Shown in pieces: positions 2,756 to 53,277 of a DNA stretch of 64,000 bases. The DNA is from Escherichia coli. Its GTDB lineage: Bacteria > Pseudomonadota > Gammaproteobacteria > Enterobacterales > Enterobacteriaceae. The stretch lies in NCBI RefSeq assembly GCF_002854065.1, contig NZ_CP024147.1; one strand, given 5' to 3'. The first letter of the stretch is position 1. The number at the start of each line of letters is the position of its first letter. Below the pieces are notes generated by a model. It ran no database searches. It saw nothing but the letters and a program-made list of their open reading frames with translations, and was not told where the DNA came from. The translations under genes were made by a program, and so were the position numbers.

Positions 2756-3673
2756 ATGTTGCATTACGATATGATCCGCTATGAAATAATGTACCTAAAA
2801 ACGCTGGACAGGCATTTCAATACAGATCACTCGTTACTGTGCAGTACTTATGATAGGCCCGATGATTTTCGACGCTTGATCTCTCAGATACTTGAACGGC
2901 ATTTTCTTGGCGATCAGGACAGAATCAAAATTGCGCGGAAAACACTTAAAGAATGGGCTGACCTGCAACTGATTGATAAAGAATATTTTGATTGTTTCAA
3001 AGGCACACCAAGAGCATCGTGGTTTGCTCACCATTATATTTTTGAATACCCAGTATTACCTGCAGGGTTGAAACTTGGTGGGTTGGGGAATGACGTCGGT
3101 TGTTCAGGTGGTTTTAATTCTCTTTTAATGAACGATAATATCTTCACAAATCTTGATTTCTCTAATTTGAATATCGACCTGGACGATATAGATTGGGACC
3201 TGATAACAAATCCACAGGCCACTGCTTCGAAAAAAACGAAACGCGTTTTCTCCCGATTTTATCTGAACGCGGGAGCAAGTACCGATCTGTACAACCCCAC
3301 TCCGGTAACTGAGCGTGAACTCATCAATGGTGTGATGAGGTACATTGATGAAGCACCATGCTCACTTGGAGATAAGATCACTTATTTCAAAAAACTGCAT
3401 GAGCGCTGGCTTGAGCAATATGATTTTTTTCTAACAGATTTTGACTGGATGTCACGTGATGATGAAACTCAGTTAGTATATCTCTGGGACTATCTCAAAG
3501 GAAAGGGACGAATAGCGAGCTATCTTCGCCCTTATAATACGTCTATGCGTTATGACATGATTATTGCGGCTATGGATGTGTGGAACGCCCAACCTGAAGA
3601 GAAGCTGGAGTTTATTGAGAAGATGAAACATGCCTGGCAGGCAGCGAAATCTTACCGGAAATCTGCTAAATAG
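2756..3673 (+). CDS. hypothetical protein, 305 aa, no family recognised
   Basis: Strong SD (GAGGGAGGAG) upstream of the ATG. This is the only long ORF in the region. It is AT-rich and has an acidic, low-complexity centre (DFSNLNIDLDDIDWDL). Two similar helical segments occur: KTLKEWADLQLIDKEYFDCF and KKLHERWLEQYDFFLTDF. Confidence 0.7.
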   Translation: MLHYDMIRYEIMYLKTLDRHFNTDHSLLCSTYDRPDDFRRLISQILERHFLGDQDRIKIARKTLKEWADLQLIDKEYFDCFKGTPRASWFAHHYIFEYPVLPAGLKLGGLGNDVGCSGGFNSLLMNDNIFTNLDFSNLNIDLDDIDWDLITNPQATASKKTKRVFSRFYLNAGASTDLYNPTPVTERELINGVMRYIDEAPCSLGDKITYFKKLHERWLEQYDFFLTDFDWMSRDDETQLVYLWDYLKGKGRIASYLRPYNTSMRYDMIIAAMDVWNAQPEEKLEFIEKMKHAWQAAKSYRKSAK

Positions 3674-4035: not shown

Positions 4036-4512
4036 CTAAGTATTACTGGGATTATTAAAAGGGATAATACTGGCCAATCCGTCATCTACATCAAGACCAT
4101 AGGCAACTGCTATTTCTGCCACAGAGGTACCACACTTTTTTCGCAGTTTAAAAAGCGCTCGCTCAAGCATAGATACTTGCACAGGATGATCAAATCGGAT
4201 GAACTGAGGGGAGCCAACACTGTCACCGAATTCTTGGCATGCCTTTCTCATTTTCCTTAATTGATTTGCTAAATATGAATCGCTCGGTAAACCTTGTAGG
4301 ATTTTAGTCAATTCAGATCTAATGCTGATAACACTCTGAATGCAATGACTAGTATCCTCCATATCGACAGGATTGAAAAGAACTCGCTTGTCCTCAAGAA
4401 AAATGACGATCTTCTTCGCTTCGTCAGCTTCTATTATTGGAGCATTCCACTGAATCCCGAATATAGGGCAGCTAAGGCCTGTAATATTTTTATAGATTCG
4501 TTCAAATTTCAA
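4036..4512 (-). CDS. hypothetical protein, 158 aa, no family recognised
   Basis: TTG start preceded by AAGGAG at a 6-nt spacing. It is the longest ORF of the region, is AT-rich, and converges on the 305-aa gene. Confidence 0.6.
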   Translation of the reverse strand: MKFERIYKNITGLSCPIFGIQWNAPIIEADEAKKIVIFLEDKRVLFNPVDMEDTSHCIQSVISIRSELTKILQGLPSDSYLANQLRKMRKACQEFGDSVGSPQFIRFDHPVQVSMLERALFKLRKKCGTSVAEIAVAYGLDVDDGLASIIPFNNPSNT

Positions 4513-5085: not shown

Positions 5086-6903
5086 CTACCTTAAACCTGC
5101 CCCTCTCATTCGCTCCTCCAGTTCATCCAGAAATGGGGAACGCCCTAGACGCATAGGGCCGTAGCGACCATCAACAAAACCGGAATACAGCATATGCACC
5201 TCGTCCCGTGCGCGGGTCAGCCCCACATAGAAAAGACGTCGGCTTTCACGCAGCTTCTCTGGCGTCTCATTACGCCACGGCAAATTCCCCAGATCTAAGC
5301 CGACCATGATAACCACGTCATATTCGCAACCTTTGGCTGAGTGAAGTGTCAGCAAATTGAGGTGCTCAGGTGAACCGTCACGACCACCTAGGCTCGTGAT
5401 ATCCAACATCGCTAACGCACCGCCTTCGGCAAGTGCTGCAGTCATGCGATCTAGTTGCTCAGCCTGATCAGAAAGCGTTGGTTCAGTTGCCAGCAGGGAA
5501 TCAACGAGACCGTTGCGCAACGACGCGACAAAATCGGATGCAGAATGTTGGTCGGCACGAAGTGCCCAAAGTAGCCTGGTTAACTCCTGCCCCTTACTCC
5601 GGGCGCATGCATCATCCAGCCTTGCCCGATGAAATGCCAGATAACGGTCTATAAGTCCGCGCAGTTGAGGGCGCCCGATACGCCAACCGCCAGCACACCA
5701 TGCTGCGCAATCCTCCACCCAGCTCGTCAAGGCAACTTTGCGATAAGGTGCTGCGGTATCCACACGAATGTAATCAAAACCGCTAGCTGTCACCGCATCG
5801 GCCACAACATCGCCGGCACGGTAGTCCTTGTACAGAATGGCGATATCACCCAGTGTTCGGCCCGGCTTAGCAGCCAACGCAGCAGGAATAATCTGCTCGA
5901 CAGCATAGACAGCCTGATCCCCCAAGCCATCCGGACACAGCTGGAACGCAATGGTTGTCTGGCGGTTTGGGTCGTTTGCGCGATAACCACGAACCTCACC
6001 CAACACCATCTCCGATGCATTCACGATGTCCGCTCCTGATCTATAGTTCAACTGGAGCCGGACTGTTTCAACGTCTCTCCTGCCTGCCAGTTCTAGTAGT
6101 AACGCACCATCGGCACCAGTGAAACCGTAAATAGATTGGTCTGCATCACCCACTGCAAATAAGCGTACGCCTCCCTCGAAAGCCAGACGTTTGACCATAC
6201 GATGGAGTGCCACGCCCAAATCTTGATATTCATCTACCGCAAGGATCGGAAATTTCGCCTGTACTAGGGGCAGAACCCAATCATGCTCAATTATCAGACG
6301 CTGACCAAATATCACCATATCGTCGTAGTCTATCAGCCCTTGCTGCCGCAATGCAGCTTCGTAGGCCTCGGCCCATGCAGCGAGTTCCTCCTCTGTACGC
6401 CAGGCAACGCTGTTGCGATTCAACACCGAACGGCGATGCCGTCCGAGATCAATAGCCTTATAGGGATGGTTTGCGCCAAAGAGACGGTCACCAGATTGTC
6501 GAAGTAACCGTTCGCTCTCGCGCTGAGACGCTACTGACAGCGGAAATGGGATTGGCAGATCGGCCAGTCGCCCATAGGGCATCAACAGATGGCGCAAGCA
6601 GAACCCATGAACGGTTCCAATAAAGAGATTCGGTGCCTCTCTAAGCCCCAGCGCTTCGAGACGACGGGTTAGCTCGCGTGCGCATTCTTGGCTATATGTG
6701 ATACATGCCGCACCACGTGGAGCTTGAACATCCTCAGCTAGGATTCGTGCCAGCTTCAGCACAAGCGTCTTTGTCTTACCACTCCCCGGGCCCGCGAGCA
6801 CCACGCAGTGTCCCTGGGAGTGATACGCGGATAACTGGCCCGGATTCCCGGCCAGCTCGGCAGCCTGAGCTAAGTAGGCTGCACTGACACTACGTGACGG
6901 CAT
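5086..6903 (-). CDS. gajB: UvrD/Rep-family SF1 helicase, GajB-like (Gabija component B)
   Basis: Walker A AGPGSGKTKT, motif II VDEYQD, motif III GDADQSIYGFTGA, LNYRS, LHSAKGCEYD, and VGLTRARDEV. The ATG at 6903 overlaps the end of the upstream OLD-family gene by 14 nt. Confidence 0.85.
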   Translation of the reverse strand: MPSRSVSAAYLAQAAELAGNPGQLSAYHSQGHCVVLAGPGSGKTKTLVLKLARILAEDVQAPRGAACITYSQECARELTRRLEALGLREAPNLFIGTVHGFCLRHLLMPYGRLADLPIPFPLSVASQRESERLLRQSGDRLFGANHPYKAIDLGRHRRSVLNRNSVAWRTEEELAAWAEAYEAALRQQGLIDYDDMVIFGQRLIIEHDWVLPLVQAKFPILAVDEYQDLGVALHRMVKRLAFEGGVRLFAVGDADQSIYGFTGADGALLLELAGRRDVETVRLQLNYRSGADIVNASEMVLGEVRGYRANDPNRQTTIAFQLCPDGLGDQAVYAVEQIIPAALAAKPGRTLGDIAILYKDYRAGDVVADAVTASGFDYIRVDTAAPYRKVALTSWVEDCAAWCAGGWRIGRPQLRGLIDRYLAFHRARLDDACARSKGQELTRLLWALRADQHSASDFVASLRNGLVDSLLATEPTLSDQAEQLDRMTAALAEGGALAMLDITSLGGRDGSPEHLNLLTLHSAKGCEYDVVIMVGLDLGNLPWRNETPEKLRESRRLFYVGLTRARDEVHMLYSGFVDGRYGPMRLGRSPFLDELEERMRGAGLR

Positions 6904-8674
6904 CGCAGATATACTCCAGTGCTTCACGAATGTAATCCGGGCATACATCCTCCGACACCGAGGGTGCCAGCGCTTGGGCGAACCGCCCTTTGCCAATTCG
7001 CTCAATCAGTTTCAACAACCGGACATTATCAAGCTGGTCCGTGTCATCCACCCACGCCTGTATCCTGTTCAGAGTAGCTCGTCTAGGAGACAATTCCTGC
7101 TCGATAACCAACTTCATGGCTTCGCCCAGTCCACCGGTAAACAGCTCTGGCTCCAGAGTGGTCTCATTGACGAAGCATCCAAAATCTCCGGCACGTGCAA
7201 TCACCTCCTCGGTAGTCATATCATCATGATCAACATCGCTCTCAAGCACGTCTAAGATATTGATAAATCTCTTACGAACCAGCGGCTCTCCATCCTCCTC
7301 AGGATCGCGGTCTGTCAGAATCACATGTGGAATATTGAGTCCCCGCGGCCCTAGGAGCTTCACATACGGAGTGAAATTTGTTCCACCGATCGAGCACACC
7401 GTGATCCCAAGCATATCTAGGGGAATATTAAGAGCATCAGCGAATGCTGGGACAAGAAAGCGTTCAGCATCCCCTTCCACCAAGATCACCCCACGTGAAA
7501 AGAATATTTCGCCGCGAGTGACATCGATATAGCGCTGCAGATCATCTTCGTCCCGCGGCGTAAACGGTGCGTTTGCCGTTGAAACCGCAATCGTCTTCCC
7601 TCCCTCCGGATCATGGCGCAGCAAAACGATGGATCTGATTGGTGTGACGCTGGCGATATGCGGGGAATGGGTGGTCAGGATCGTTGTCAACGGTGTTCCT
7701 TCATCACCATTGTCTCCGTCAGTCCCTAGGAAATAACGGTAAACCAGGCGCTGTACGTGCGGATGTAGGTGCGCTTCCGGCTCCTCGACTACGAAAAACG
7801 TATGGTCTCGTTCTCCGTCATTAACAAGACGATCAAGTTCGAGGCTTTTTAGGGCAAGAAAAATCAGATTAGCTGTCCCCAGACTGGCATCGCCAATGCC
7901 ACGAATGCCACTATCAAGCAGCAAACGCAGGCTACGTAGCAGCGCATCAACGCGAGTCGGTGCAAGTCCGAGCGATACCGGAACGGCATGTTGCTCACCT
8001 GCGATAGCTATCAACCTTTCGCTAATTCGTTCGGCTGTCGCTGCCACCTCATCATGATCAGCCAGTTCCCGTTGAGCCTCATCAACTTGGGTTTGAATCT
8101 CCTCACGAGTCTCGTCGTCCAGAGATGCGGACAGTTCTTCAATAAGCGGTCTTAAGGGTGAATTACGCCAGCTTGAAAGGTCCTTCTCGGCATCACGCAA
8201 CGCGCCTTGAACATCAATGGGCAACATACGGCGAAAGGCACCACCAATATGCATGTCAGGATCAGCTCCACCGAAGATCACATACTCATAATCTTTTAAC
8301 GATTCAGGAGCTCGATTTAACGCGGTTTTGGGCTGAAAGCGGTAGGTAAGACGGGCCACCATCGGAGGCCCCGGATTTAGGACACAGTCATTCAGATGAG
8401 CCATCAATCGGGGATCGTCAGTGAACTCAGTAAGATCCACTGAAATTTCGATGGTCTCCCCCAGTTTGTCTTCGCCCAATCCATCCCAAAAATGTTCAAA
8501 ACCCAGTTGACGGTCACGCTCAGACAACCCTGGGTCAAGAATCAGCTGCAGGCCGCGAATAAAATTGCTCTTGCCAACCTTGTTTTCACCAACAATAACA
8601 ATACTCTCACCCGTTTCAACATCAACATCGGAGAAGTTGGCGAAATTAATTAACCGGATTCGGGAAATCCGCAT
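6890..8674 (-). CDS. gajA: OLD-family ATPase + TOPRIM nuclease, GajA-like (Gabija component A)
   Basis: N-terminal Walker A GENKVGKSN and Walker B/D-loop FFVVEEPEAHLHP. C-terminal TOPRIM signature VILVEGDAERF plus ILTDRDPEED. AGGGAGG SD is present. It is paired with a UvrD-like helicase, as in class 2 OLD/Gabija loci. Confidence 0.85.
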   Translation of the reverse strand: MRISRIRLINFANFSDVDVETGESIVIVGENKVGKSNFIRGLQLILDPGLSERDRQLGFEHFWDGLGEDKLGETIEISVDLTEFTDDPRLMAHLNDCVLNPGPPMVARLTYRFQPKTALNRAPESLKDYEYVIFGGADPDMHIGGAFRRMLPIDVQGALRDAEKDLSSWRNSPLRPLIEELSASLDDETREEIQTQVDEAQRELADHDEVAATAERISERLIAIAGEQHAVPVSLGLAPTRVDALLRSLRLLLDSGIRGIGDASLGTANLIFLALKSLELDRLVNDGERDHTFFVVEEPEAHLHPHVQRLVYRYFLGTDGDNGDEGTPLTTILTTHSPHIASVTPIRSIVLLRHDPEGGKTIAVSTANAPFTPRDEDDLQRYIDVTRGEIFFSRGVILVEGDAERFLVPAFADALNIPLDMLGITVCSIGGTNFTPYVKLLGPRGLNIPHVILTDRDPEEDGEPLVRKRFINILDVLESDVDHDDMTTEEVIARAGDFGCFVNETTLEPELFTGGLGEAMKLVIEQELSPRRATLNRIQAWVDDTDQLDNVRLLKLIERIGKGRFAQALAPSVSEDVCPDYIREALEYICDAVT

Positions 8675-14880: not shown

Positions 14881-15043
14881 TATATGGACGAAATATCATG
14901 CAAATAGAAGCTGTAATTTTAACTGGGCACATTATCGCAAGTACAATCCGGGAATGCTGGGCCGTCGTTGTTGATGGTTTTGACGCATGCGGCGAACAAG
15001 CTTATGATCCAGCTTAATTTCTTTTCCTCATGAAGGGACGGGT

Positions 15044-16051
15044 ATGGGCAACAGAATGTGGATGATTCGCGGTGACGGCGGCAAGCTCTATGACGATTTT
15101 CGCGATAAGCAAATTGTAGGCATCGGTTGGTCTCAGCTGGCTCCATTAGTCAAACCCGGCCTGTCCCGAGCCCAGTTACTCGCCTTATACCAGGAGGCAG
15201 ATCCCTTAACAAAGCTGGGAACAGCCCGTTCTGGTGCATCGCAGGTCTGGCGTTTTGTGAATGAGATCCAAAAGGGTGATTGGGTTATTACCTATTCGCC
15301 AGCCAACCGTACTTATTTGCTAGGCAAAGTCACATCCGACTTCCAATATCATCCTGAATGGGTGGAAGAGGGGATGGGGATCGCTCGGCAGGTTAAATGG
15401 AATACTCAAGAAATCGACCGCGATAGACTGTCTGTTGCTACCAAAAACACATTGGGTTCTACGCTGACGGTTTTTCAGCTTCCAGAATATGCGCTAGAAG
15501 AGCTTTTGCAGGATAAGAAACCCACTATAGATGTAATTACTCAGAATCCAGTTGCAATGGATGAAGATGAGGTCGTTTCTGATCCGCTTCGCGATATGGA
15601 AATGCTGGCGTTTGAGGGTATCAAAGATCGTATTAACTCTCTTGATTGGGACGAGATGCAAAATCTTGTTGCCGGAGTTTTACGCAGTATGGGCTATAAA
15701 ACGCAGGTTTCACCTGCGGGAGCCGATCGGGGTAAAGACATCATTGCTTCACCTGATGGGTTCGGTTTTGAAAATCCGCGTATTATCGTTGAGGTAAAGC
15801 ACCGCAGGGAACAGATGGGAAGCCAACAGATACGCAGCTTTATCGGCGGTCGCCATAAAGACGATCGCGGGCTTTATGTCAGTACAGGGGGTTTTACGAA
15901 AGATGCTCGATATGAAGCCGACCGTTCGACGATACCACTGACGCTCTGGACACTTGATGATCTCGTCCGTGCGCTTATTGAGAACTACGAACAAGTTGAT
16001 ATCGAGACTAAACTTTTGGTGCCTCTGAAGAAAACTTTCCTGCCTGCCTGA
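15044..16051 (+). CDS. Mrr-catalytic-domain (PD-(D/E)xK) restriction endonuclease with a distinct, possibly PUA/EVE-like, N-terminal domain
   Basis: C-terminal GADRGKDIIA...RIIVEVKHRRE...LYVSTGGFTKDA gives a D...ExK core and the Mrr-type TGGF/SxxA tail. The N-terminal 150 aa (MWMIRG..IVGIGWS..GDWVITYSP..YLLGKVTS..ARQVKW) is unlike the E. coli Mrr N-terminus. AAGGGA SD is present. Confidence 0.75.
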   Translation: MGNRMWMIRGDGGKLYDDFRDKQIVGIGWSQLAPLVKPGLSRAQLLALYQEADPLTKLGTARSGASQVWRFVNEIQKGDWVITYSPANRTYLLGKVTSDFQYHPEWVEEGMGIARQVKWNTQEIDRDRLSVATKNTLGSTLTVFQLPEYALEELLQDKKPTIDVITQNPVAMDEDEVVSDPLRDMEMLAFEGIKDRINSLDWDEMQNLVAGVLRSMGYKTQVSPAGADRGKDIIASPDGFGFENPRIIVEVKHRREQMGSQQIRSFIGGRHKDDRGLYVSTGGFTKDARYEADRSTIPLTLWTLDDLVRALIENYEQVDIETKLLVPLKKTFLPA

Positions 16052-16211: not shown

Positions 16212-16249
16212 TTCGAGTCCGGCCTTCGCACCTTCGCACCTTCGCACCA
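16212..16249 (+). repeat. tRNA-Leu (leuX) 3-prime-end remnant / attR-like island junction with an 8-bp triplication
   Basis: TTCGAGTCCGGCCTTCGCACC matches the leuX 3-prime end (GGTTCGAGTCCGGCCTTCGGCACCA) except for one missing G. CCTTCGCA occurs three times in tandem (16223-16246), followed by CCA. Confidence 0.7.
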
Positions 16250-16450
16250 TCGGAACATCAATAGACATCAACGGACGTTTTTTTATGACTGAAATCCGCG
16301 CCACACAAGGCTTTTCGCTATTTTTCGCTCAACCTAAGTCAACCTACATCAACTTACTGATGTGGATACAGCTACAGCTGCGGCTATACCCCGATTCGAT
16401 AATGTTTGTACCCACACAAAACCCTTGAAAGGCTACAAGGCTGAAATTGT

Positions 16451-16935
16451 CTAAACCATAGAGATGATTTTTATGATCCAGTCTTTCTCTTGTTGAGATA
16501 GTTCCAGTTTGCTCACTCGTGTTAAGAAGGTATTGATCACCTGAACATCCGAATTGGTGAGCCTATTTAATAGAGCGGGTGGTATACCTTTACTAACAAT
16601 CGCTTTGCGGTGACTTTCGTAGTTTTTATTACTCATTGTTGATCCTAAAAAATCATTGTATGGCGGCATTGATCGTTTCCAGCAACCTTTACTTACTCAC
16701 TTCGAACTGCATCCTCGTAGACTGTTCCACTACAATAATCGAAAAGGCGCGGATGTCCATTCAGGTATCCCGCTAATACGTATAGCAATAACAATGGCTT
16801 ATGCGGCGCGCGCTGTTCACCCTTGTGCCAGATTTTTATATTGGCAATTGCCTGCTGTAGCGATTTACTGGAAGCTATTGATATCCCTGGCAGTGAAATA
16901 ATTGCGATCATGCTCGCAAATTTTCTGCTGTTCAA
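16451..16935 (-). pseudogene. decayed gene for a modified-DNA (sulfur-binding-domain-like) reader of a type IV restriction protein
   Basis: Two consecutive ORFs lie in different frames (16693-16935 and 16451-16669). The first carries RAPHKPLLLLYVLAGYL, a motif I associate with ScoMcrA-type SBD/HNH restriction proteins. No nuclease domain follows. Confidence 0.35.
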
Positions 16936-17014: not shown

Positions 17015-17665
17015 ATGAATAAACTCCCTGATCATCTTCCGCGGCGGTATATCATCGAAGCTATCCATTTATGGGATGCGGGAGAAACTCATCAGTTCCA
17101 GCCTGCGCGGTTGTATGAGATTGAATATCATGGCCGACGTTACCCCTCGAAGGCGATTGCTGGCATCGCAGCGACATTGATGACGGGGACGCAATTTACC
17201 CCTGCGGATTTCACCGGCGGAATAAAATCTAAATGTGTCAAGCTACTCATAGAGCAGGGATTTCATATTCATCTGGATAAAGCCGCTGCGGCTCCCATAG
17301 CCGACGTTCTGTTCCCGGATGAGTTGCCGTCGCAGGAGACATACCTTGAAGGTGCGGCGATAAAGGTGACAGTAAACCGCTATGAACGCGATAAAAAGGC
17401 CCGAGATAAAGCGGTCGAACATCATGGATGCCAGTGCAACGTATGCGGTGTTGATCTGGTGAAGATCTATGGTGATATCGCTGAAGGCTTTATCCATGTG
17501 CATCACCTGGTGCCGCTGTCAGCCATTAAAGAGGATTACCAGCTGGATCCAGTTAATGATTTGCTGCCTGTGTACCCTAATTGCCATGCGATGTTGCACC
17601 GACGCAAACCACCGTTTACGCCGGAGCAGTTAAAAGCGCTGATGGATGCGAATAAATCAAATTAA
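17015..17665 (+). CDS. HNH endonuclease with an N-terminal putative DNA-reader domain (type IV restriction-like)
   Basis: C-terminal HNH region is CQCNVCGV...FIHVHHLVPLS...NDLLPVYPNCHAMLH. The N-terminal part, YEIEYHGRRYPSKAIAGIAA, resembles reader domains of McrA/McrB-type enzymes. Confidence 0.75.
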   Translation: MNKLPDHLPRRYIIEAIHLWDAGETHQFQPARLYEIEYHGRRYPSKAIAGIAATLMTGTQFTPADFTGGIKSKCVKLLIEQGFHIHLDKAAAAPIADVLFPDELPSQETYLEGAAIKVTVNRYERDKKARDKAVEHHGCQCNVCGVDLVKIYGDIAEGFIHVHHLVPLSAIKEDYQLDPVNDLLPVYPNCHAMLHRRKPPFTPEQLKALMDANKSN

Positions 17666-49053: not shown

Positions 49054-50286
49054 TCACCGCTCCTCCGCCAGCTCGGCAGCCTGATGTTGGCGCACGCGAT
49101 TAAGCAATCCGGCCAGGGTGAAAACGACGATAACGCCTGCCACAACGGCTAACAGATGAAACGGCAAGCGACCGCTGTTAAACCACAGCCAGCGGCCGAT
49201 TTCGACCGAGACAGACATCACCATCAGGATCACCATATTCAGCGATGCGGAGACGGTCCCTTTCGGTAAGTTATTGGAAAACAGCGTAAAGCGGAATAAG
49301 GTCGGGAAAATCAAACCAATCCCGAAAGCATACAGACTGGTGCCCAGCACCGACCACAGCCAGACGTGCGGTGACAGCAGATTGCCGATAATCAACAGCG
49401 CGAGGCCAACCAGTTGAAGGGGTACGGCACGCCAGATAAAGCGCGGTTCGGTCGGATCTTTAACGAAACGCGCCACGATGGCATTCGCGACAATCACCGC
49501 GCCGAACACCGGAACCTGTGTCCAGGCGAACTGCGAAGTTGTTAAGCCGCCCGCGTCGATCAGGATCACCGGCGAGACAGCCACCCAACTCATCATGGGG
49601 ATATAGCTTAAAGAGATGGTTGCTGCGCCAAAGAGGAACAGCCGATTGCAAAAGACATTACGAAAATCGCGCAAGACGCTTTTGGCGCTAAATGGAACCG
49701 CGCCGCGCTTCACCGTCTCTGGCATCGCCAGCAGTAAGCCAACAAATGAGATAAAACCCATAACCGCAATGATGGCAAAAAGGACTTTCCAGTGCACAAA
49801 GTGCATCAGAGCTGCGCCGGAAAGCGGGCCAATAATCGGCGCAATCAGTACGATGGAGGTGATAATCGCCATCAACTTGATCCCTTTTGTCTGTCCGAAC
49901 GCCTCCTGCACCGTGACATAACCAACGGTGGCAATAAAACAGATACTGGTGCCCTGAATTGCACGCGCGATAAGAAACTGTGTCATAGACGTTGTGAACA
50001 TTGTCGCAGCGCAGGCAAGGGTAAATATTAGCGCCCCGGTAATCAGCACCGGCCTGCGGCCAACCCTGTCGGAAAGCGGCCCCAGCAGCCACTGCAATGC
50101 CATGCCTCCAGCGAGATAGAGACTGACGGCAGCCGGGGCCAGACTGACATCGGCATTAAAATCACGGACCACATTAATGATCCCTGGCTGGATCAGGTCC
50201 GTCGACAGATACGCAGCAAAGTCATACAAAATCAACGCCATCGGGAAAAACAGCGTGGCGGCATGGCGGGCAAAAAAACGTGGCAT
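49054..50286 (-). CDS. mdtM: MFS multidrug efflux pump
   Basis: 410 aa from [14 protein letters not shown], matches K-12 MdtM (YjiO). Confidence 0.95.
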
Positions 50287-50600
50287 AACAAACAACTCCT
50301 TGTCCGGAGAACCCCAATGGGGAAAACGAAATTCAATACCGTCGGTAATGACGAAAGGCAGGCGAGAAGGACAAATGTACTGAATTTCATGTAATCAACC
50401 ACACTGCCTGCGAATACACAGACAGAGAAATACCTTCTGACTCCAGGTCAGAATGTATAACGATTACAAATAGTCATCAGCACATTACACCTCTTTAATT
50501 GATGGCTTGCATAGAAAATATACACCTTAAGTGTAATTAAAATTTGGTAATGCTGCCAACTTACTGATTTAGTGTATGATGGTGATTTTAAGGTGCTTGC

Positions 50601-50876
50601 GTGGCTTCCATTTCCATCAGATGTCCTTCCTGCTCCACTACTGAAGGCGTGGTGCGTAACGGCAAAAGCACTGCCGGACATCAGCGCTATCTCTGCTCTC
50701 ATTGCCGTAAAACATGGCAACTACAGTTCACTTACACCGCCTCTCAGCCCGGTACGCACCAGAAAATCATTGATATGGCCATGAATGGCGTCGGATGTCG
50801 CGCCAGTGCACGCATTATGGGCGTTGGCCTCAACACGGTTTTACGTCACTTAAAAAACTCAGGCCGCAGTCGGTAA
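50601..50876 (+). CDS. insA: IS1 InsA (variant)
   Basis: 91 aa, [43 protein letters not shown]... Confidence 0.85.
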
Positions 50877-51298
50877 CCTCGCGCATACAACCGGGCAGTG
50901 ATGTGATTGTCTGCGCTGAAATGGACGAACAGTGGGGCTACGTCGGTGCTAAATCACGTCAGCGCTGGCTGTTTTACGCGTATGACAGGATACGGAGGAC
51001 GGTTGTGGCGCACGTCTTCGGTGAACGCACTCTGGCCACACTGGAGCGTCTTCTGAGCCTGCTGTCGGCCTTTGAGGTCGTAGTATAGATGACGGATGGC
51101 TGGCCGCTGTATGAATCACGCCTGAAGGGAAAGCTGCACGTTATCAGCAAGCGTTACACTCAGCGCATTGAGCGACATAACCTGAATCTGAGACAACATC
51201 TGGCAAGGCTGGGACGGAAGTCACTGTCGTTCTCAAAATCGGTGGAGCTGCATGACAAGGTCATCGGGCATTATCTGAACATAAAACACTATCAGTAA
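50795..51298 (+). pseudogene. insB: IS1 insB frame interrupted by a nonsense codon
   Basis: TAG at 51086-51088 (FEVVV*MTDGW) where the fimH copy has TGG ([11 protein letters not shown]). Confidence 0.85.
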
Positions 51299-51496
51299 GT
51301 TGGAGTCATTACCCGACAGCGAGGTGTTTAGTGTGCCATGTCAGGCGAGAAATTCTATTGGATGAATCAAGTCCAACTTACTCATTGTCAATTTCATGGT
51401 TGATTATTCGAAACGTGATGCTATTTCCAACATCAACGCTATAATTGCAGAATAATTGTAGATACATTTTTGTATATACAATTAGGGATGGCAATT

Positions 51497-51784
51497 ATGC
51501 CAATGGAGTTTGAATGGGATGAAAACAAGGCCAAAAGTAATCGGGTGAAACATGGCATCCGCTTTGAAGATGCGGTGTTATTGTTTGATGATCCACAACA
51601 TTTGTCACAGCAAGAACGCATAGAAAACGGTGAGTATCGCTGGCAGACAATCGGCCTGGTTTACGGCATCGTGGTTATTCTGGTTGCGCATACCATCCGT
51701 TTCGAAAGCGGAAATGAAATTATTCGAATCATCAGTGCACGAAAAGCAGATCGTAAAGAGAGGAATCGCTATGAGCATGGTTAA
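51497..51784 (+). CDS. brnT: BrnT-family toxin (DUF497 ribonuclease)
   Basis: MPMEFEWDENKAKSNRVKHGIRFEDAVLLFDDP matches the BrnT/DUF497 N-terminal signature. TAGGGA SD is present. Confidence 0.8.
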   Translation: MPMEFEWDENKAKSNRVKHGIRFEDAVLLFDDPQHLSQQERIENGEYRWQTIGLVYGIVVILVAHTIRFESGNEIIRIISARKADRKERNRYEHG

Positions 51785-52073
51785 ACATAAACGAGGGACC
51801 TCCTCTACACTCGATGTGCAGCATGAGGCCGAACTGAAGGCGCTGACGAATAAATCCGACGAAGATATTGATTACAGTGATATCCCACCTTCCAGCGATG
51901 AGCAATGGTCTAACGCCGAACGCGGTAAGTTTTATCGGCCATTGAAAACTCAGGCTTCGGTGCGTATTGATGCTGATGTGATGGAATGGTTGAAGCGACC
52001 AGGTAAAGGCTATCAAACTCGCCTGAACGCAATTTTACGTGAAGCGATGCTGCGCGATCAGAACAAAAAATAA
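51771..52073 (+). CDS. brnA: BrnA-family antitoxin
   Basis: DEDIDYSDIPP...FYRPLKTQASVRIDADVMEWLKRPGKGYQTRLNAILREAM matches the BrnA (DUF4415-like) pattern. Its ATG overlaps the end of brnT by 14 nt. Confidence 0.8.
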   Translation: MSMVKHKRGTSSTLDVQHEAELKALTNKSDEDIDYSDIPPSSDEQWSNAERGKFYRPLKTQASVRIDADVMEWLKRPGKGYQTRLNAILREAMLRDQNKK

Positions 52074-52106
52074 TTCAGGCCGCCACATGGCGGCCATCAT
52101 CCAAAA

Positions 52107-53063
52107 TTACTTCCTCAACCCCGCAAACGCTGCCCGAATCTCTTCCTCCGGCAACTGAATCCCGATAAACACCATTGTGCTATGCGGTTTTTCATCGCCC
52201 CACGGGCGGTCCCAGTCGGCGCTGTAGAGGCGCTGGACGCCCTGGAACAGCAGGCGGTTAGGTTCGCCGTCAATCCACAGCATCCCTTTGTAACGCAGCA
52301 GTTTATCTGCCGATTCCAGAAGCAGGTTTTCCATCACCCGGGAAACTTCGCTGATATCTACCGGGTAATCCAGTTCCACCACAATCGACGAAATATCGTT
52401 TTGTTTATCCGCGATAAAGTGGAAACGCGGTTTGGTGCTGACGACGTTCTCTTCCAGCATAAAACCGTTGGTGTTGAACAGCAGGCCCAGGTCGATGTCG
52501 CCGTGGGTGACGGTGTAGACCGGTGCACGGGCGTTGATGCGCGCCAGGCGTTCACGCAGTTTTTCTGCTTCGCCTGCGACGTCGGTTTTGGTCAGCAGAA
52601 TACGGTCGGCGTAGCCAACCTGGGACTGGGCGATGGTGAACTGGTTCATCTGCTCGTCGGCATGTACCGCATCCACCAGCGCAATCACACCGTCCAGCAG
52701 GTAACGCTGGCATAAAATCTCATGGGAGAAAAAGGTCTGAATAATCGGGCCGGGATCGGCCATGCCGGTGCATTCAATGACCAGACGGTCAAACTGAATA
52801 TTGCCCTTGTCGAGATTATCCAGCAGGTCGAGTAGTGCGTCTTCCAGCTCGTTGGAGCGCGAACAGCAGATGCAGCCGTTGGTCAGCGTTTTGATCTGCG
52901 TGGCGCGGTCGCCAATTAGTTGATCATCAACGGAGACTTCGCCGAATTCGTTTTCAATCACGGCAATCTTGTAGCCGTGTTGTTCGTTAAGAATATGGCG
53001 CAGCAGGGTGGTTTTTCCCGCGCCTAAAAAACCGGTGAGTAGGGTAACTGCAATCGGGTTCAT
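52107..53063 (-). CDS. yjiA: COG0523 P-loop GTPase / metal chaperone
   Basis: 318 aa from MNPIAVTLLTGFLGAGKTT, matches K-12 YjiA. Confidence 0.95.
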   Translation of the reverse strand: MNPIAVTLLTGFLGAGKTTLLRHILNEQHGYKIAVIENEFGEVSVDDQLIGDRATQIKTLTNGCICCSRSNELEDALLDLLDNLDKGNIQFDRLVIECTGMADPGPIIQTFFSHEILCQRYLLDGVIALVDAVHADEQMNQFTIAQSQVGYADRILLTKTDVAGEAEKLRERLARINARAPVYTVTHGDIDLGLLFNTNGFMLEENVVSTKPRFHFIADKQNDISSIVVELDYPVDISEVSRVMENLLLESADKLLRYKGMLWIDGEPNRLLFQGVQRLYSADWDRPWGDEKPHSTMVFIGIQLPEEEIRAAFAGLRK

Positions 53064-53073
53064 GCTCTCTCCA

Positions 53074-53277
53074 TTAACAACAGCGCATACCGCCTTTACC
53101 ATCGCCGCCGTAGCGCGCGTTCTGGCGTTCGCGGAAGAATTCTTCATAGCTCATGTACGGCTTGTCGGGATGGTTGGTCTTCATATGCTCGACGTAGTTG
53201 TCGTAGTCTGGAATGCCAATCAACATCTTTGCCGCCTGGCCGAGATATTTTTTTGCCTGTCCTAAGTTACCAAACAT
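53074..53277 (-). CDS. yjiX: small DUF466 protein YjiX
   Basis: 67 aa, matches K-12 YjiX, downstream of btsT. Confidence 0.9.

Follow-up and report, generated by a model that had tools for sequence, protein, structure and literature searches.

A predicted modification-dependent restriction endonuclease with a PUA-like DUF8426 domain at the end of an Escherichia coli leuX island

The gene at positions 15044-16051 (+ strand) of a 64,000-nucleotide stretch of Escherichia coli contig NZ_CP024147.1, which we call the window, encodes a 335-residue protein in which a predicted reader domain of the PUA superfamily (Pfam DUF8426) is joined to an Mrr_cat nuclease domain. In our assessment the protein is, with a probability of roughly 60%, a stand-alone type IV modification-dependent restriction endonuclease that acts as a single polypeptide and independently of nucleoside triphosphates (NTPs). 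We found the reader-like and the nuclease domain in one polypeptide, with no other Pfam domain and no NTPase domain. Stand-alone type IV enzymes are known to combine a base-flipping reader of the PUA superfamily with a nuclease, and since the protein fits this plan we read it as a modification-dependent endonuclease. The enzyme class is not new; the family itself has database entries (DUF8426 plus Mrr_cat; PDC-S02 in PADLOC) but is uncharacterised. The new points are modest, namely the fold assignment of DUF8426 and a recurrent, operon-like association with type I restriction-modification (R-M) genes.

Domain architecture of the protein

The open reading frame (ORF) is complete from an ATG start, and its translation contains every peptide motif that a first-pass annotation of this DNA had quoted: GKDIIA at residues 230-235, IVEVKH at 248-253 and STGGFTKDA at 280-288, with MWMIRG, IVGIGWS, GDWVITYSP, YLLGKVTS and ARQVKW all in the N-terminal half. 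The proposal that the C-terminal half is an Mrr-type PD-(D/E)xK nuclease held up as well. Pfam Mrr_cat matched residues 198-310 (15635-15973, +) with E=1.9e-24 and 86 bits against a cut-off of 21 bits. The putative catalytic codons are those of D232 (15737-15739), E250 (15791-15793) and K252 (15797-15799), preceded by the helix residue E191 (15614-15616). In an alignment of 49 homologues of 62-91% identity, E191, D228-R-G-K-D232 and E250-V-K252-H were all invariant. As predicted from these residues, the active site is E...D...ExK, the classical restriction endonuclease type, with its catalytic residues intact. A profile search also gave a sub-threshold resemblance to NACHT-associated REase-like domains. 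The related candidate, an inactive NA-iREase1-like domain, was rejected, since its match lay below the cut-off (24 versus 27 bits) and the catalytic residues are invariant.

The first-pass annotation had further held that the N-terminus is not the winged-helix domain of Mrr and may be a PUA/EVE-like reader of modified bases. The first part agrees with our searches, in which neither Mrr_N nor any other model of a local Pfam copy matched residues 1-197 at E<=1. NCBIfam gave no match for the protein, and phmmer against PDB sequences returned only spurious weak matches, such as an ADP-ribosyltransferase at E=0.18. Precomputed annotation recorded the newer Pfam family PF28530 (DUF8426) for all 120 homologues listed, including 99%-identical ones, in the architecture PF28530 DUF8426 plus PF04471. 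Pfam labels DUF8426 a domain of unknown function, and a literature search for PF28530 or DUF8426 found no paper.

The second part was borne out at the level of fold. AlphaFold2 modelled residues 1-160 (15044-15523, +) from an alignment with 25 homologues at a predicted local distance difference test score (pLDDT) of 89.6 and a predicted template modelling (pTM) score of 0.85. Two independent structure-comparison methods placed this model in the PUA superfamily, nearest to the EVE and YTH readers of modified bases; in Foldseek the top rank went to RNA-binding YTH domains (probability 1.00, TM about 0.5). The pseudobarrel of the model superimposes on solved EVE/YTH domains, and a helical insertion of two helices is predicted at residues ~42-74. 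These results support, at the fold level, a pseudobarrel domain of the EVE/YTH branch.

Among domains of only 34-54% identity, the residues conserved in DUF8426 were W6, R9, G28-W29, Q67, R70-F71, G78-D79, T83-Y84, R89, Y91 and G94 in the first part, followed by R115, W119, R126-D127, N135, L137-G138, T142 and F144. Six aromatic residues (W6, W29, Y84, Y91, W119 and F144) were at least 80% conserved over 46 such domains. By its place after strand 2 of the model, G-W29 may correspond to the pocket tryptophan of the EVE 'WG' and YTH 'VWST' motifs.

Between the two domains, residues 159-180 (15518-15583, +) are acidic and predicted to be disordered, with pLDDT below 50 in the full-length model, and they form the sole poorly conserved, indel-rich stretch of the 49-homologue alignment. 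The protein thus consists of two independently folded domains joined by an acidic disordered linker of ~22 residues.

An exhaustive HMMER search with residues 1-165 recovered 1671 cluster representatives at E<=1e-3. Mrr_cat was present in 43 of the 78 longer ones, and most of those without it look, from their lengths, like truncated metagenomic fragments. One of the 78 carries Mrr_cat together with a Top1-type zinc ribbon. Another, a metagenomic protein of 1176 residues (P0256), combines DUF8426, a type IV nuclease of the GmrSD_N kind and, at its C-terminus, a Schlafen/AlbA_2 domain. Given such fusion partners (Mrr_cat, GmrSD), DUF8426 is in essence a module associated with nucleases. At a Burkholderia locus (L005), a separate Schlafen/AlbA_2-HATPase gene stands immediately 5' of the DUF8426-Mrr gene, which, with the P0256 fusion, hints at a recurring association of DUF8426 with AlbA_2. 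Further matches of the N-terminal domain were to part of the PADLOC 'REase_II' model and to a PHROG whose function is unknown.

Distribution and selection

The whole protein corresponds to the PADLOC candidate PDC-S02 (PDLC04819), which it matched over its full length (E=1.8e-81, residues 1-335 against positions 1-330 of the 334 in the profile). A literature search on PDC-S02 found only census-type papers and one negative spot test. Within E. coli the gene is accessory: 42 of 5426 complete genomes carry it, four of them with partial copies, always on the chromosome and annotated only as 'restriction endonuclease'.

A scan with strict peptide patterns and one genome per species found relatives in 290 of ~186,000 species-level genomes; 80 loci were retrieved from it. 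Twenty-six of these loci encode proteins of at least 79% identity, and all 26 are enterobacterial. The protein is 97-99% identical over Klebsiella, Serratia, Citrobacter, Enterobacter, Yersinia, Xenorhabdus and others, which implies recent horizontal spread. Homologues in Pseudomonas, Bordetella and Xanthomonas share 61-67% identity, full-length relatives of 25-46% identity were found on plasmids of Proteus, Bacillus, Corynebacterium, Butyrivibrio and haloarchaea, and looser similarity extends to Firmicutes, Actinobacteria and archaeal plasmids. Carriage by phages was considered and rejected, as only 2 of 50,697 records of a phage collection matched, neither of them a convincing phage.

The window gene is intact and real, and it is under strong purifying selection. 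The ratio of nonsynonymous to synonymous substitution rates (dN/dS) was 0.036-0.039 when the gene was compared with two E. coli copies of ~97.5% nucleotide identity and with a Rahnella copy of 90% protein identity.

Association with type I restriction-modification loci

Neighbouring ORFs of the 80 loci were clustered, and the clusters were annotated with Pfam. Two kinds of context emerged. At the 26 enterobacterial loci, a CbeA/CbtA module stands upstream in 16, type I hsdM occurs anywhere within the 10-kb flanks in four, and a co-directional hsdM within 5 kb downstream was found in none.

The other 54 loci are more distant and nearly all non-enterobacterial (Pseudomonas, Bordetella, Achromobacter, Xanthomonas, Thauera and others). 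In 18 of them hsdM starts 0-73 bp downstream of the nuclease gene on the same strand and is followed by hsdS and hsdR. Only an AAA ATPase and S8 peptidase pair separates the nuclease gene from hsdM in three more, and the gene directly follows hsdR or hsdM in five. Independent look-ups returned the same arrangement of the gene with hsd. A small gene for a winged helix-turn-helix (wHTH) protein of the MarR/HVO_A0114 type lies 33 bp upstream at 14 of the 54 loci, and 12 occupy the mnmE hotspot, in many cases together with an integrase. A conserved array of wHTH gene, DUF8426-Mrr_cat gene and hsdM/hsdS/hsdR was seen in many beta- and gammaproteobacteria (L051-L093; for example, 10001-10984 of L052 and its flanks). 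The adjacency to hsdM could be a co-location on islands, as for mrr and hsd in K-12.

The leuX island in the window

A direct repeat of the 3' end of the tRNA-Leu gene leuX plus ~25 nt of its downstream flank was found at 16212-16274 (+), ~160 bp past the stop codon of the nuclease gene. It is the single match in the window, with none expected by chance. We compared this attachment site, attR, with the real leuX of NZ_CP178662.1, a genome that has a 100%-identical copy of the nuclease gene and 98.8% identity over the window's first 30 kb. The attR copy has a tripled 8-bp CTTCGCAC unit, in contrast to the single CTTCGGCACCA in the tRNA gene. The repeat marks the boundary of the island and makes the nuclease gene the last cargo gene before attR, as the first-pass annotation had proposed. 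The 98.8%-identical locus differs by 9 bp in the stretch from the nuclease gene to the next ORF.

Upstream of the nuclease gene are genes for a DUF932 protein, an antirestriction protein, RadC and the CbeA/YeeU-CbtA toxin-antitoxin pair. The gene may have its own promoter, since a consensus scan gave a candidate sigma-70-like site, TTGACG-17-TATGAT, at 14980-15008 (+). A Shine-Dalgarno-like AAGGGA is at 15033-15038, 5 nt 5' of the ATG. The promoter candidate agrees with the consensus at 10 of 12 positions; this is weak evidence, and promoter-like sites in the region are no more numerous than in shuffled sequence.

Further into the island lies a complete Gabija system at 5086-8674 (-), comprising the GajB helicase (5086-6903; the listed ORF reaches 7005 from an upstream TTG) and the GajA ATPase-nuclease (6890-8674), which PADLOC detected at E=1e-258 and E=1e-233. 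Between Gabija and the island regulatory genes are a 305-residue ORF at 2756-3673 (+), which has neither a Pfam nor a PADLOC match, and a gene for a DUF6650 protein at 4036-4512 (-).

The island of NZ_CP178662.1 extends ~38 kb from leuX. Its leuX-proximal part (4025281-4039988) corresponds to the region upstream of the window start, outside the window, and carries an integrase, type I hsdRMS, an AAA ATPase and an argonaute/piwi plus PD-(D/E)xK nuclease pair. The island is densely packed with multiple defence systems. It ends in the same way, with CbtA and then the restriction endonuclease, in two other E. coli strains whose upstream cargo differs. No methyltransferase gene is adjacent in the E. 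coli contexts of the gene.

Just outside attR are a remnant of a phosphorothioate-DNA-binding (HNH_2-type) restriction endonuclease at 16693-16935 (-) and an intact HNH endonuclease of 216 residues at 17015-17665 (+). In other E. coli strains (L002, L003) the states are reversed, with the phosphorothioate-dependent enzyme intact and the HNH gene a remnant, suggesting two alternative restriction cassettes at this chromosomal spot.

The canonical mrr/mcrBC/hsd locus had been reported as absent from the window, and this proved right. The genes mdtM (49054-50295) and yjiA (52107-53147) are only ~1.8 kb apart. In K-12 the yjiP-to-mrr stretch, with mcrBC, hsdRMS and mrr, lies between these two genes, so the short gap at 50296-52106 shows that this region is missing here. 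NZ_CP178662.1 has a penicillin G acylase gene and yjiR/yjiS between mdtM and yjiA.

Mode of action, target and alternative explanations

If the protein is a type IV enzyme, its N-terminal domain would flip a modified base of incoming DNA into a pocket of family-invariant aromatic residues, for which W29, Y84/Y91 and W119 are candidates, while the conserved R9, R89, R115 and R126 would contact the DNA backbone. The reader would then position or license the nuclease domain, which would cut nearby. The active form is probably a dimer or higher oligomer, as in MspJI/AspBHI, and host DNA would be spared because it does not carry the target mark. At loci with a neighbouring type I R-M operon, the enzyme would act on the modified DNA that classical restriction misses, the same division of labour as among hsd, mcrBC and mrr in K-12.

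Hosts of the order Enterobacterales are Dam+ and Dcm+, and type I genes for N6-methyladenine (m6A) methyltransferases adjoin the gene in part of the family. Generic Dam, Dcm and type I methylation are therefore improbable targets, and on these grounds we set aside both m6A, which YTH-like domains would suggest, and 5-methylcytosine (5mC) of the Dcm type. A phage-type hypermodified base or a non-host methylation context appears more likely.

Several points weigh against a modification-dependent type IV enzyme. The hosts' own m6A and m5C exclude the simplest specificities, and many YTH and EVE domains bind RNA rather than DNA. A literature search found no experimental characterisation of the DUF8426-Mrr family, and a cold-seep PDC-S02 assayed in E. 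coli B did not figure among those systems that gave protection from T4, T5 or T7, although this tested protein may belong to a different PDC-S02 subfamily. The EVE/YTH relationship is one of fold only. No EVE or YTH Pfam model matched residues 1-197 at E<=1, and a PDB search with a profile of 46 diverse DUF8426 domains brought up not one EVE/YTH chain at E<=10, so that the link to the PUA superfamily is not claimable at the sequence level. (The single PDB match of this profile, 'Rhobin9', was judged spurious, a chance hit.) The candidate pocket, in which G-W29 was placed by secondary-structure position, is provisional. Finally, about 28 of the 54 distant loci adjoin a type I operon, which could point to a coupled rather than a stand-alone role.

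A bolder version, which we put forward tentatively and would not expect to hold, is that DUF8426 is a distinct, hitherto unassigned branch of the EVE/YTH readers for a base modification outside the range of characterised type IV enzymes. Candidate marks would be 7-deazaguanines, hypermodified forms of thymidine or adenine, or a methylation context that none of the hosts has. The frequent place of the gene at the head of type I R-M operons would then be that of one arm in a co-regulated, two-pronged cassette, with type I cutting unmodified DNA and DUF8426-Mrr cutting modified DNA.

We think it rather unlikely that the protein is an accessory nuclease coupled to type I R-M, without a modification reader of its own, acting as a partner or back-up that is switched on, for example, by inhibition or stalling of the type I enzyme. 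The adjoining type I operons just mentioned, 18 of them with hsdM 0-73 bp downstream, would fit such a role. In E. coli the gene would have become detached and would be carried by an island whose opposite end bears a type I system of its own, and the 98.8%-identical island of NZ_CP178662.1 indeed has hsdRMS beside its integrase. However, unrelated defence genes are well known to insert at type I R-M loci, and proximity therefore does not have to reflect any link, physical or functional. The enterobacterial loci, with no co-directional hsdM within 5 kb downstream in any of the 26, also speak against coupling, as do the many Pseudomonas loci entirely without a type I operon, and PADLOC models the protein as a single-gene candidate.

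It also seems improbable to us that the PUA-like domain senses something other than modified DNA, whether DNA that is damaged or single-stranded, a modified RNA (as in the m6A RNA binding of YTH domains) or a phage-made nucleotide or protein, and unleashes indiscriminate DNA cutting in the manner of abortive infection or a toxin. In its favour, the best Foldseek matches are RNA-binding YTH domains, RNA is the classical ligand of EVE, ASCH and PUA domains (PMC6765204), a CbtA/CbeA toxin-antitoxin pair adjoins the gene, and there is the sub-threshold resemblance to NACHT-associated REase-like domains. Yet DUF8426 is fused essentially only to restriction-type DNA nucleases (Mrr_cat, GmrSD), its closest structural analogues among restriction enzymes (VcaM4I, TgMcrB-N, MspJI/AspBHI) read modified DNA, and no immunity or antitoxin partner is conserved beside the gene across the two context types.

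The idea of a decaying or catalytically dead island passenger, to which the rarity of the gene in E. coli (42 of 5426 genomes, four with partial copies) and the sub-threshold 'inactive REase' match (24 bits for a 27-bit cut-off) might lend colour, was already disfavoured and is very improbable in view of the dN/dS of ~0.04 against both 97%- and 90%-identical copies, the invariant catalytic residues, the 98-99% protein identity across more than 15 enterobacterial genera and the 61-67% retained in Pseudomonas, Bordetella and Xanthomonas.

The type IV endonuclease that we favour provides a structural and functional hypothesis for DUF8426 and for PDC-S02, a widespread, unvalidated PADLOC candidate. 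Its recurrent placement beside type I R-M is a testable case of paired defences against unmodified and modified DNA. Should its specificity be new, the enzyme might become a reagent for mapping DNA modification and might explain host-range limits of modified therapy phages; otherwise it would be an expected variation on a well-understood theme.

Comparison with known systems

Among predicted type IV enzymes, 'EVE-PD(D/E)XK' proteins and rare EVE-GmrSD fusions have been listed before (Bell, Wolf, Koonin 2020). The former have the same predicted architecture as the DUF8426-Mrr protein and may include its family; the latter have a parallel in the DUF8426-GmrSD fusion found here (P0256). The logic of a reader and a nuclease in a stand-alone type IV enzyme, as in MspJI/AspBHI and VcaM4I, has been reviewed (PMC12707154, PMC6765204). 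In MspJI/AspBHI/LpnPI the reader is SRA-like, whereas that of the DUF8426 protein is nearest to EVE/YTH, and sequence similarity between them is not detectable. MspJI is specific for 5mC and 5-hydroxymethylcytosine (5hmC).

VcaM4I (PDB 6YEX) is an EVE-HNH type IV enzyme of only ~10% sequence identity, with an HNH nuclease in place of the PD-(D/E)xK domain, and DUF8426 has the helical insertion at ~42-74 in addition. The flipped base in VcaM4I is sandwiched between W82 and Y130 (PMC7897488). YTH-McrB of Thermococcus gammatolerans (PDB 6P0G) and EVE-McrB belong to GTP-dependent, two-component McrBC systems, unlike the DUF8426-Mrr protein, which has no NTPase domain. The 'END nucleases' were also considered and found to be unrelated, their sensor being an inactive EndoIII.

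With E. coli K-12 Mrr, the DUF8426-Mrr protein shares the Mrr_cat catalytic domain and, as far as predicted, the type IV logic, in which the enzyme would lack a cognate methyltransferase. The motif of Mrr is cited as D...QxK (PMC11037411), in contrast to the classical D...ExK of the DUF8426-Mrr protein. Mrr has the winged-helix Mrr_N domain, which is absent from the DUF8426-Mrr protein. In the K-12 gene order mrr stands beside the type I hsd operon, and the DUF8426-Mrr gene likewise stands beside a type I hsd operon in other proteobacteria.
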